64,000 nucleotides of DNA from an uncultured Acidimicrobiia bacterium (GTDB lineage Bacteria > Actinomycetota > Acidimicrobiia > IMCC26256 > CAWATG01): assembly GCA_963785035.1 (NCBI GenBank), contig CAWATG010000005.1:287-64286 (forward strand). Reading direction: 5' to 3'. The position numbers were made by a program, and so were the translations under genes. This document shows, in pieces, positions 47,833-49,314 of this stretch (within the stretch, counting starts at the first letter, position 1; each line of letters starts with the position of its first letter). The notes beneath the pieces were generated by a model. The model was given only the letters and a program-made list of their open reading frames with translations, was not told the DNA's origin and did no database searches.

Positions 47833-49314
47833 ATGGACGGCGCCCGAATGCAGCGGATCTCCACAGAAACAGACAATGGCGCCCGCCCCACACCGTTGCG
47901 AGCACAGCAACGGCGGGGCCACAGGGCCAAGCGCTTCGTAGCCATGCTCGGGCTGGCCGGTGTGACCGCTGCGAGCGGCCTGCCGTTGACCTCCGATGCG
48001 GCCCTTTCAGCAGTACCCGCAAAGATCGTCGGCTCCGGCGGTCCTATTGCCGCCAAAGCGTCGGTGGCAAGCATTGCAGCCACACCAACCGGCAACGGCT
48101 ACTGGCTCGTCGCATCCGACGGCGGCATCTTCTCCTACGGCGACGCCAAATTCTACGGCTCCACCGGAAACACCAAACTCAACAAGCCCATCGTCGGCAT
48201 CGCAGCCACACCAACCGGCAACGGCTACCGGCTCGTCGCATCCGACGGCGGCATCTTCTCCTACGGCGACGCCAAGTTCTACGGCTCCACCGGAAACACC
48301 AAACTCAACAAGCCCATCGTCGGCATCGCAGCCACACCAACCGGCAACGGCTACCGGCTCGTCGCATCCGACGGCGGCATCTTCTCCTACGGCGACGCCA
48401 AGTTCTACGGCTCCACCGGAAACACCAAACTCAACAAGCCCATCGTCGGCATCGCAGCCACACCAACCGGCAACGGCTACTGGCTCGTCGCATCCGACGG
48501 CGGCATCTTCTCCTACGGCGACGCCAAGTTCTACGGCTCCACCGGAAACATCAAACTCAACTCATCGATTGCCGGCATCGCAGCCACACCAACCGGCGAC
48601 GGCTACTGGCTCGTCGCATCCGACGGCGGCATCTTCTCCTACGGCGACGCCAAGTTCTATGGCTCGGCAGGCGGTAACTGCTTGAAGGGCAAGGTCACGT
48701 CGCTGGCGTCATCGAGTGCAGCCACGGGATATTGGATCGCTGCGGCCAACGGCGAGGTCCGCGCCTACAACGAGAGCACGACCGACTCCAAGGGCTGCAA
48801 CAATCCGCCTGCCGCCGACGCATCCGCTGCAGGTGGCGCGCCCCCGGCGGGAACAACGGCCGAGGCAGCAATCGCTCACGATATGTTCACGCGGCTCAAC
48901 ACCGAACGGGCACAGCGTGGTCTGCCGCTGCTGAGTTGGGACCCCGAGCTGGCGATACACGCTCGAGGCTGGAGTACCACGATGAGTGTCAGCAACAGCT
49001 TCCGCCACAGCGATCTCAACCCACTTCTGGCACGGTTCACCGTCGCCGCGGAAAACATTGCTTATGGGCGTGGTGAGGGAACCACAGCGGGCCACATTCA
49101 CGTCGCCTGGATGAAGTCAGAAGGTCACCGGGTCAACATGCTCGCACCGAACCTCGACCAGGTCGGGATCGGCGTCGTATGCGCTGCTGATGGAACGATG
49201 TGGGCAACAACGCAGTTCGGTCGTGTTCCCGGCTCGAAGAAGCCTTCCGGCTTCGGTCCGATCCCGAATACGTACCCGATCGTCGGCGAAGCAGCTGGCA
49301 ACGTCACCTGCTAA
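47833..49314 (+). CDS. Secreted repeat protein (five 42-aa repeats plus one degenerate) fused to a C-terminal CAP/SCP/PR-1-like domain
   Basis: The N-terminus is basic then hydrophobic ([23 protein letters not shown]). It has 5 x [10 protein letters not shown][W/R][31 protein letters not shown] plus a degenerate [20 protein letters not shown]. The CAP-like tail has FRHSD, [19 protein letters not shown] and GIGV. The start is ATG 47833 or 47848. Confidence 0.8.
   Translation: [493 protein letters not shown]
48073..48702 (+). repeat. In-frame tandem repeat, 5 x 126 bp; units 2 and 3 look identical
   Basis: Units start at 48073, 48199, 48325, 48451 and 48577. By eye, units 2 and 3 are base-for-base identical. 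Unit 1 differs at about 3 positions. Unit 4 differs by CGG->TGG and in its last ~25 bp. Confidence 0.9.

Follow-up and report, generated by a model that had tools for sequence, protein, structure and literature searches.

The stretch analysed here (the window) comprises 64,000 nucleotides from an uncultured Acidimicrobiia bacterium (assembly GCA_963785035.1, contig CAWATG010000005.1, positions 287 to 64,286 of the forward strand) and contains, at 47833..49314 on the + strand, a gene of 493 amino acids (aa) plus stop for a putatively exported protein in which an array of 42-aa repeats precedes a CAP/SCP/PR-1-type domain. The coding sequence was taken from the open reading frame (ORF) list and is supported by the GC content of its third codon positions (GC3 0.76, against an overall GC of 0.63) and by the alignment with an ortholog, P0018, from an Acidimicrobiia metagenome-assembled genome (MAG; GCA_046331155.1), which has 63% identity over 92% of the query and is annotated as 'CAP domain-containing protein'. 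Candidate start codons are ATG at 47833, ATG at 47848 and TTG at 47896. From the N-terminus, and all on the + strand, the protein has a signal-peptide-like segment (aa 27-56, 47911..48000; hydropathy profile and inspection), a predicted six-bladed beta-propeller domain (aa 75-316, 48055..48780; AlphaFold2 (AF2) models and Foldseek against the PDB), an Ala/Pro/Gly-rich linker with Cys322 (aa 317-340, 48781..48852), where the predicted local distance difference test score (pLDDT) is <50 at aa 317-320 and 324-337, the CAP/SCP domain (aa 341-470, 48853..49242, with the Pfam match at 48892-49200; Pfam, PDB match, AF2 and alignment) and a conserved C-terminal tail (..P.GFG..P..PIV....G.V.C) ending in Cys493 (49243..49311; alignment, pLDDT ~88).

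The signal-like N-terminus, as judged from hydropathy and by eye, consists of the basic stretch RRGHRAKR (aa 27-34), a hydrophobic stretch (aa 35-52) and then TSDA/A, and clear signal-like N-termini are also found in the relatives P0018 and P0080. Tat export was considered for the RR at aa 27-28 and rejected on inspection, the next residues misfitting the twin-arginine consensus, and lipoprotein anchoring was ruled out, there being no Cys in the signal region. The protein has four Cys residues (283, 322, 450 and 493), all conserved, which fit an extracytoplasmic location and could pair in disulfides. An alternative-frame ORF at 47996-48685 (+), of 229 aa with the repetitive translation 'SQPHQPATATGSSHPTAASSPTATP...', is the repeat array read in another frame and was discarded as a gene.

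At the DNA level, Tandem Repeats Finder reports one array at 48071-48665 with a period of 126, 4.7 copies, 97% matches, 0 indels and a score of 1092. Together with the comparison of units, this confirms the five 42-aa repeats and degenerate sixth, built from 126-bp units, that the original prediction had described from the letters of the sequence. The five tandem units lie at 48073-48198, 48199-48324, 48325-48450, 48451-48576 and 48577-48702 (48073..48702, +), and a hidden Markov model (HMM) of the unit likewise detects five, at aa 81-285. The degenerate sixth unit (48703..48780, +), which would close the ring, retains a GYW...G.V.AY core, has three strands in both AF2 models and is also present in P0018. 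No difference is seen between units 2 and 3 over their 126 positions and, as had been noted, they share a TGG to CGG change, so that both carry Arg (48229..48231 in unit 2 and 48355..48357 in unit 3, + strand) at the position where the family has Trp; units 1, 4 and 5 have TGG there. Compared with unit 2, unit 1 has 3 differences and unit 4 has 9, clustered in its last 26 nt, while the first 83 nt are almost identical across units 1-5. The longest exact self-match in a scan at offset 126 is of 204 bp (48151-48354 = 48277-48480), a direct repeat that spans 48151..48480 (+) and that short reads cannot resolve.

The earlier proposal that the repeats form a six-bladed propeller was borne out by structure prediction, with two confident AF2 models, a Foldseek probability of 1.00 and six units as the family norm. 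In the full-length model, the pLDDT exceeds 90 for aa 70-310 and is ~90 in the CAP domain, with aa 1-65 and the linker at 317-337 disordered; the model of the propeller domain by itself has a pLDDT of 91.0, a predicted template modelling score (pTM) of 0.88 and 18 DSSP strands, three per unit. Foldseek against the PDB gave a probability of 1.00 to many beta-propellers, the best of them with template modelling (TM) scores of 0.65-0.67, a root-mean-square deviation >5 Å and 9-16% identity. The models therefore support a beta-propeller fold class for the repeat domain, a close relative of which was not found among solved structures. The top matches are all of the WD40 type; this is a structural likeness only, as no WD40 match was found for the window protein in Pfam at E<=1.

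The CAP domain, also part of the original prediction, was verified by Pfam (PF00188, aa 354-456, E 5.8e-16, 59.8 bits against a cut-off of 21.1), by the match to the SCP-domain protein of PDB 4ifa (E 1.5e-7) and by alignment; no other Pfam domain was found in the window protein. Among the CAP relatives in alignment A3, His392, Glu407 and His432 are invariant and Glu430 is variable. In the AF2 model, helices 342-361, 371-387 and 419-436 flank strands 404-412, 443-450 and 456-464 with a pLDDT of ~90. The profile score, the His/Glu/His site and this predicted alpha-beta-alpha sandwich together indicate membership in the CAP/SCP/PR-1 superfamily. At the subfamily level, the scores were below the cut-offs of the NCBIfam models for YkwD (TIGR02909, 51.6 bits against 171) and for DalA (NF052539, 24.4 bits against 200), and the signal region has no Cys as a further departure from DalA.

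The fusion of repeat and CAP domain is shared with P0018, which has the same layout: its fifth unit contains a Cys, its sixth is degenerate and its C-terminal tail finishes with a Cys. The neighbourhood of P0018, like the window, holds genes for acyl-CoA dehydrogenase, S15 peptidase and P-type ATPase. The reverse order, with CAP before the repeats, occurs in P0080, P0236 and P0246; since both domain orders occur, the combination must have arisen more than once. The closest repeat-free CAP relatives are short secreted proteins with their own signal sequences and the same tail. The tail and its terminal Cys are common to the window protein, P0018 and P0121-P0125. A scan of GTDB species genomes with unit 6 and the CAP part returned only distant CAP proteins (Frankia, Moranbacteria and others) and no closer ortholog. 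In two of the stand-alone CAP relatives, P0122 and P0123 (189 aa), the hydrophobic N-terminal stretch is immediately followed by a Cys; these two may be lipoproteins, which would be a different envelope tether for the same CAP domain.

The repeat itself belongs to a large family. A word-indexed search with the window protein gave at least 8000 matches, and an exhaustive HMMER search of 1.84 billion representatives of 50% identity clusters found it in at least 19,399 clusters at E<=1e-3 and in 9,265 at E<=1e-30, so that the repeat is not unusual. Among the 120 matches listed, every one named by organism comes from Acidimicrobiia or Acidimicrobiales MAGs; a plasmid search gave no match. The lack of a name noted earlier did stand: Pfam-A and NCBIfam at E<=1 gave chance-level matches only (L24e, AbiEi_4), there was no significant PDB sequence match with either the single protein or a 16-sequence profile, and no description of the repeat was found in the literature on the motif, on bacterial CAP/YkwD proteins, on endolysins with propellers or on Acidimicrobiia endolysins. 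The fusion, held at the same time to be unrecognised, is not unique, as the four proteins P0018, P0080, P0236 and P0246 show. The chance-level match to L24e (E 0.011, window protein aa 128-149) is probably the source of a recurrent mis-annotation, in which several family members (P0007, P0035, P0080, P0101 and P0105) carry the JGI label 'ribosomal protein L24E'.

By the unit HMM, 227 of 265 retrieved proteins (86%) have exactly six units and a few have 12 or 18; the 19 proteins with five units probably carry a degenerate sixth, as the window protein does. Column 12 of the unit has W in 91%, R in 3% and Y in 3% of the units. Because Arg is the second most frequent residue at the Trp position family-wide, the Trp to Arg change in units 2 and 3 is a tolerated and recurrent family variant rather than an oddity. 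In the independent assemblies of P0137 (aa 37-291), P0189 and P0185, five or six 42-aa units are wholly identical, which reflects either very strong homogenisation or the collapse of repeats during metagenome assembly.

The repeat module is located at the N- or C-terminus of its proteins. Its partners include peptidoglycan enzymes (YkuD, SpoIID, Amidase_2 and Amidase_3), glycosidases and proteases (GH43, GH16, GH26, subtilisin and pro-kumamolisin) and other domains (PQQ-like propellers, TIG, fn3, Big_3_5, Calx-beta, cadherin-like, RTX and CAP), which, as judged from these architectures, is a secreted or surface repertoire.

The repeat is also encoded by viruses. The family profile, run against IMG/VR, detected it in 90 viral stretches, from which 57 ORFs were extracted. 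An N-terminal Amidase_2 domain is present in 39 of the 57, and endolysin families dominate their PHROG matches, the largest family matching 29. The unit counts are 2 (25 ORFs), 3 (25), 6 (5) and 12 (2), and never 4 or 5; in 50 of the 57 ORFs, the 2- or 3-unit repeat forms the C-terminal end, 0-3 residues from the terminus. This is the position in which endolysins of phages infecting Gram-positive hosts carry their wall-binding domain, and by its location C-terminal to the catalytic domain the viral repeat would belong to the class of endolysin cell-wall-binding domains. One viral protein combines six units with PG_binding_1, and with this exception no other named wall-binding family was detected in the viral repeat ORFs. 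In the viral stretch L016, tape-measure and minor-tail genes lie just upstream of the repeat gene, whose product is an Amidase_2 protein. Additionally, when GenBank phages were searched by tblastn, a tail-region protein of 1304 aa (L006 2657-6571; MK557849.1, 42901-46815) proved to contain divergent copies of the repeat. This protein has two blocks of divergent GYW repeats and is labelled 'glycoside hydrolase family 25', although it has zero Pfam matches and only a weak PHROG match, to 'tail protein'; its gene sits just after that for a minor tail protein, and a role in the tail or in receptor binding seems to suit it better than that of a GH25 enzyme.

Because of the endolysin architecture and of the cellular partners that act only on peptidoglycan, here it is proposed that the most likely target of the six-blade propeller is the cell wall, through peptidoglycan or a glycopolymer linked to it, and that the propeller thereby tethers the CAP domain at the cell surface; the probability of this reading is put at roughly 0.55. 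A Sec-type signal would carry the protein across the membrane, the six 42-aa repeats would fold into a single six-bladed beta-propeller, and the CAP/YkwD-like domain would hang off it by a flexible linker of ~25 aa, the propeller acting as a portable targeting module that holds the CAP domain at the surface. The CAP domain keeps the His/Glu/His site of its superfamily. The link to endolysins would thereby supply the function, wall binding, that the original prediction lacked.

A different use of the propeller would be as a lectin or carbohydrate-binding module directed at external polysaccharides or at foreign surfaces, serving substrate targeting or adhesion rather than anchoring to the own wall. 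Beta-propeller lectins are well known, and the repeat is frequently fused to GH43, GH16 and GH26 and to adhesin-type immunoglobulin-like, cadherin and Calx-beta domains. However, the commonest viral context is that of an amidase endolysin, the target of which is the host's own wall, and the partners YkuD, SpoIID, Amidase_2 and Amidase_3 work only on peptidoglycan, so that this alternative is considered unlikely; it would overlap with wall binding if the ligand were a wall glycopolymer.

WD40-like propellers are, furthermore, classic protein-binding platforms, and with WD40 structures as the best Foldseek matches, the domain might instead be a scaffold for protein-protein interaction or self-assembly, such as a surface-layer lattice or an oligomerisation domain, with no wall ligand. 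The 2- and 3-unit endolysin tails, which must oligomerise if a six-blade ring is needed, would also suit such a role. Oligomerisation into a ring is nonetheless compatible with wall binding, a module found on dozens of unrelated enzymes is better understood as a shared address label than as a binder of specific protein partners, and there is no sequence match to the WD40 models; a scaffold function is therefore regarded as very improbable.

Several points weigh against the wall-binding proposal itself. The nature of the ligand, and wall binding as such, are read from domain architecture; the C-terminal domain of the endolysins could serve oligomerisation or regulation instead, and the partners GH43, GH16 and GH26 fit an external-polysaccharide-binding module equally well. 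A closed six-blade ring is deduced from the number of units, the pTM and the matches in Foldseek, and both AF2 models were built on alignments of repeat-rich sequences. The full-length model (pTM 0.58, with a disordered linker) gives no prediction for the relative placement of propeller and CAP domain. Export is suggested by the signal-like N-terminus, the orthologs and the four conserved Cys, and the exact start codon is uncertain.

A wider proposal can be built on wall binding, in which the repeat would constitute a large, unnamed family of wall-binding propellers of Acidimicrobiia and their phages, with a six-blade working ring made from one cellular chain or, in phages, from trimers of two-blade or dimers of three-blade tails, and with the window protein displaying its CAP domain on the wall. 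This combined statement is put forward more tentatively, at somewhat less than even odds.

The near-identity of the units, for which the original prediction had offered very recent duplication or ongoing gene conversion, was compared with the ortholog and with the family. Blades 1-4 of the window gene have 91-100% DNA identity to each other (88-100% at third codon positions), against 74-82% (67-79% at third positions) when compared with any ortholog blade. Blades 5 and 6 can still be matched to their positional counterparts in the ortholog, whereas for blades 1-4 this correspondence is lost. Blades 1-4 have thus undergone concerted evolution. The ortholog has homogenised pairs of its own, O1/O2 at 90% and O3/O4 at 94%, and an identical pair of units at the protein level occurs in 6.5% of 261 family members, some of them with five or six identical units, in a sample biased toward sequences resembling the window query.

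An assembly artefact, that is, collapse, expansion or a chimeric consensus of a repeat too long for short reads, would also produce identical units. At 204 bp, the exact repeat at offset 126 is longer than typical k-mers and than most short reads, no exact match to the window protein or to its upstream neighbour is on record in the public collections searched, and other metagenome-assembled family members show 5-6 identical units. On the other hand, the total of six units is the same as in the ortholog and in 86% of the family, the reading frame is unbroken, the AF2 model closes with high confidence, and independent assemblies also homogenise neighbouring units (for instance O3/O4 of the ortholog, at 94%). 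An artefact of this kind is accordingly given little credence.

As for the two processes named in the original prediction, the part that stood is the homogenisation of the units, whereas duplication is disfavoured by the constant count of six. Unequal crossing-over is mechanistically easy in such arrays, and units 2 and 3, identical at 126 of 126 positions and sharing the derived CGG, could come from a very recent duplication offset by the loss of another unit, with copy number varying between strains. Against this, the ortholog and the family have six units and the viruses only 2, 3, 6 or 12, constrained counts that argue for strong selection on the number of units; moreover, homogenisation takes in the first 83 nt of all five units but does not reach into the 3' third of unit 4 or of unit 5, and tracts of this kind are typical of conversion. 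Recent duplication is therefore judged a very improbable explanation, and the repeat-number variation that had been thought likely at this locus runs counter to the conserved count. Given this count and the boundaries of the identical tracts, which fall inside units, the data are better accounted for by gene conversion that leaves the number constant than by duplication and a change in copy number. Intragenic conversion would homogenise blades 1-4 and would have passed the Trp to Arg change from one blade to its neighbour, with the count staying at six.

Among the neighbouring genes, the one upstream (45783-47660, +) encodes a VanW / PG_binding_4 / G5 protein with a Pro/Ala/Thr-rich tail and is another peptidoglycan-associated exported protein adjoining the CAP gene; the ortholog locus L001 has, at the corresponding position, a 608-aa gene without recorded Pfam match. 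Downstream, a convergent S15/PepX peptidase gene on the - strand extends 79 aa beyond the end of its ortholog (...PASNGG and stop), at 49117-49356, with a TGC codon at the position of the ortholog's stop. Its 3' end is thereby antisense to the CAP gene over an overlap of 198 bp (49117-49314), and the extension looks like the loss of a stop codon or a base-call error.

The single gene is an ordinary member of its family, and the significance lies in the latter, which is large and has neither a curated name nor a solved structure. The use of the repeat as an endolysin tail gives a domain of ~19,000 clusters a testable function, wall binding. If this function is true, the repeat would represent a wall-targeting module of a new type in an actinobacterial class that is environmentally abundant and mostly uncultured, its fluorescent binding domains could be a handle to label or capture Acidimicrobiia cells, and the recurrent L24E mis-annotation would be corrected. 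It would also be a natural propeller built from 2-, 3- or 6-blade chains, and a bacterial CAP domain would be placed at the wall, narrowing the search for CAP function.

With regard to known systems, the CAP part resembles YkwD of Bacillus, 4ifa, Borrelia BB0689 and Rhodobacter DalA in its fold and in the His/Glu/His motif set, and those proteins are extracytoplasmic. It differs from all four in the conserved Cys of its own subfamily, in the tail ending in Cys and in the fusion to a propeller. DalA, a distant relative, binds peptidoglycan non-covalently (PMC10470522), and no function could be identified for BB0689 (PMC5842191).

For the repeat, membership in the RCC1-like families (PF00415/PF13540/PF25390) was rejected, as the window protein has no match to them and the other signals are sub-threshold; it was kept as a lead. 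RCC1-like proteins are the best signals of the PDB profile search, at E 0.047 for the HERC2 RLD and E 7-9 for RPGR. The hhalign comparison of the repeat with RCC1 gave a probability of 9% at the domain level and 5% at the unit level, with 32-33% identity, and Pfam WD40_RLD (21 bits) and RCC1_2 (18 bits) appear inside the viral repeats of L013, far below their cut-offs. These signals agree in one register (a hydrophobic strand, a Gly turn and x-V-x-x-[WF]-G-D), and a distant relationship to RCC1 is possible, although RCC1 has seven blades of about 50-60 aa and the repeat family six units of 42 aa. The protein P0230 (1244 aa) has a six-unit propeller at the N-terminus and a genuine RCC1-like propeller at the C-terminus, of which Pfam detects only the latter, and this pair of domains could help to test the kinship of the two repeat types. 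BLIP-II is a propeller with three-stranded blades, a feature that the repeat shares, with three strands per blade by DSSP.

The lectins RSL and BambL are oligomeric six-bladed propellers, and in the RSL type chains of two blades each assemble into the ring. Endolysin tails of 2 and 3 units point to such an arrangement for the viral repeat, which has no sequence or close structural match to RSL or BambL, its top Foldseek matches being WD40 proteins at TM <=0.67. The receptor-binding protein of phage phi11 contains a propeller with a putative N-acetylglucosamine site (PMC6115969), and is similar in that a propeller is proposed to recognise wall glycans, again with no sequence or close structural match. 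As in phage endolysins with wall-binding domains, the repeat is C-terminal, behind an enzyme domain; unlike the usual endolysin tails, those of 2 or 3 units are predicted to have to oligomerise to form a ring.

The closest parallel in organisation is found in Clostridium difficile, where Cwp11 and Cwp12 have three CWB2 wall-binding domains and a CAP domain, within a Cwp family that combines a constant wall anchor with a variable payload (CAP, amidase, glycoside hydrolase and others) (PMC5842191). CWB2, of toprim-like fold, assembles as a trefoil of three and binds PSII, whereas the anchor of the window protein is a non-homologous, predicted six-bladed propeller of 42-aa units that would bind the wall; like the Cwp family, the Acidimicrobiia repeat has a comparable list of partners.

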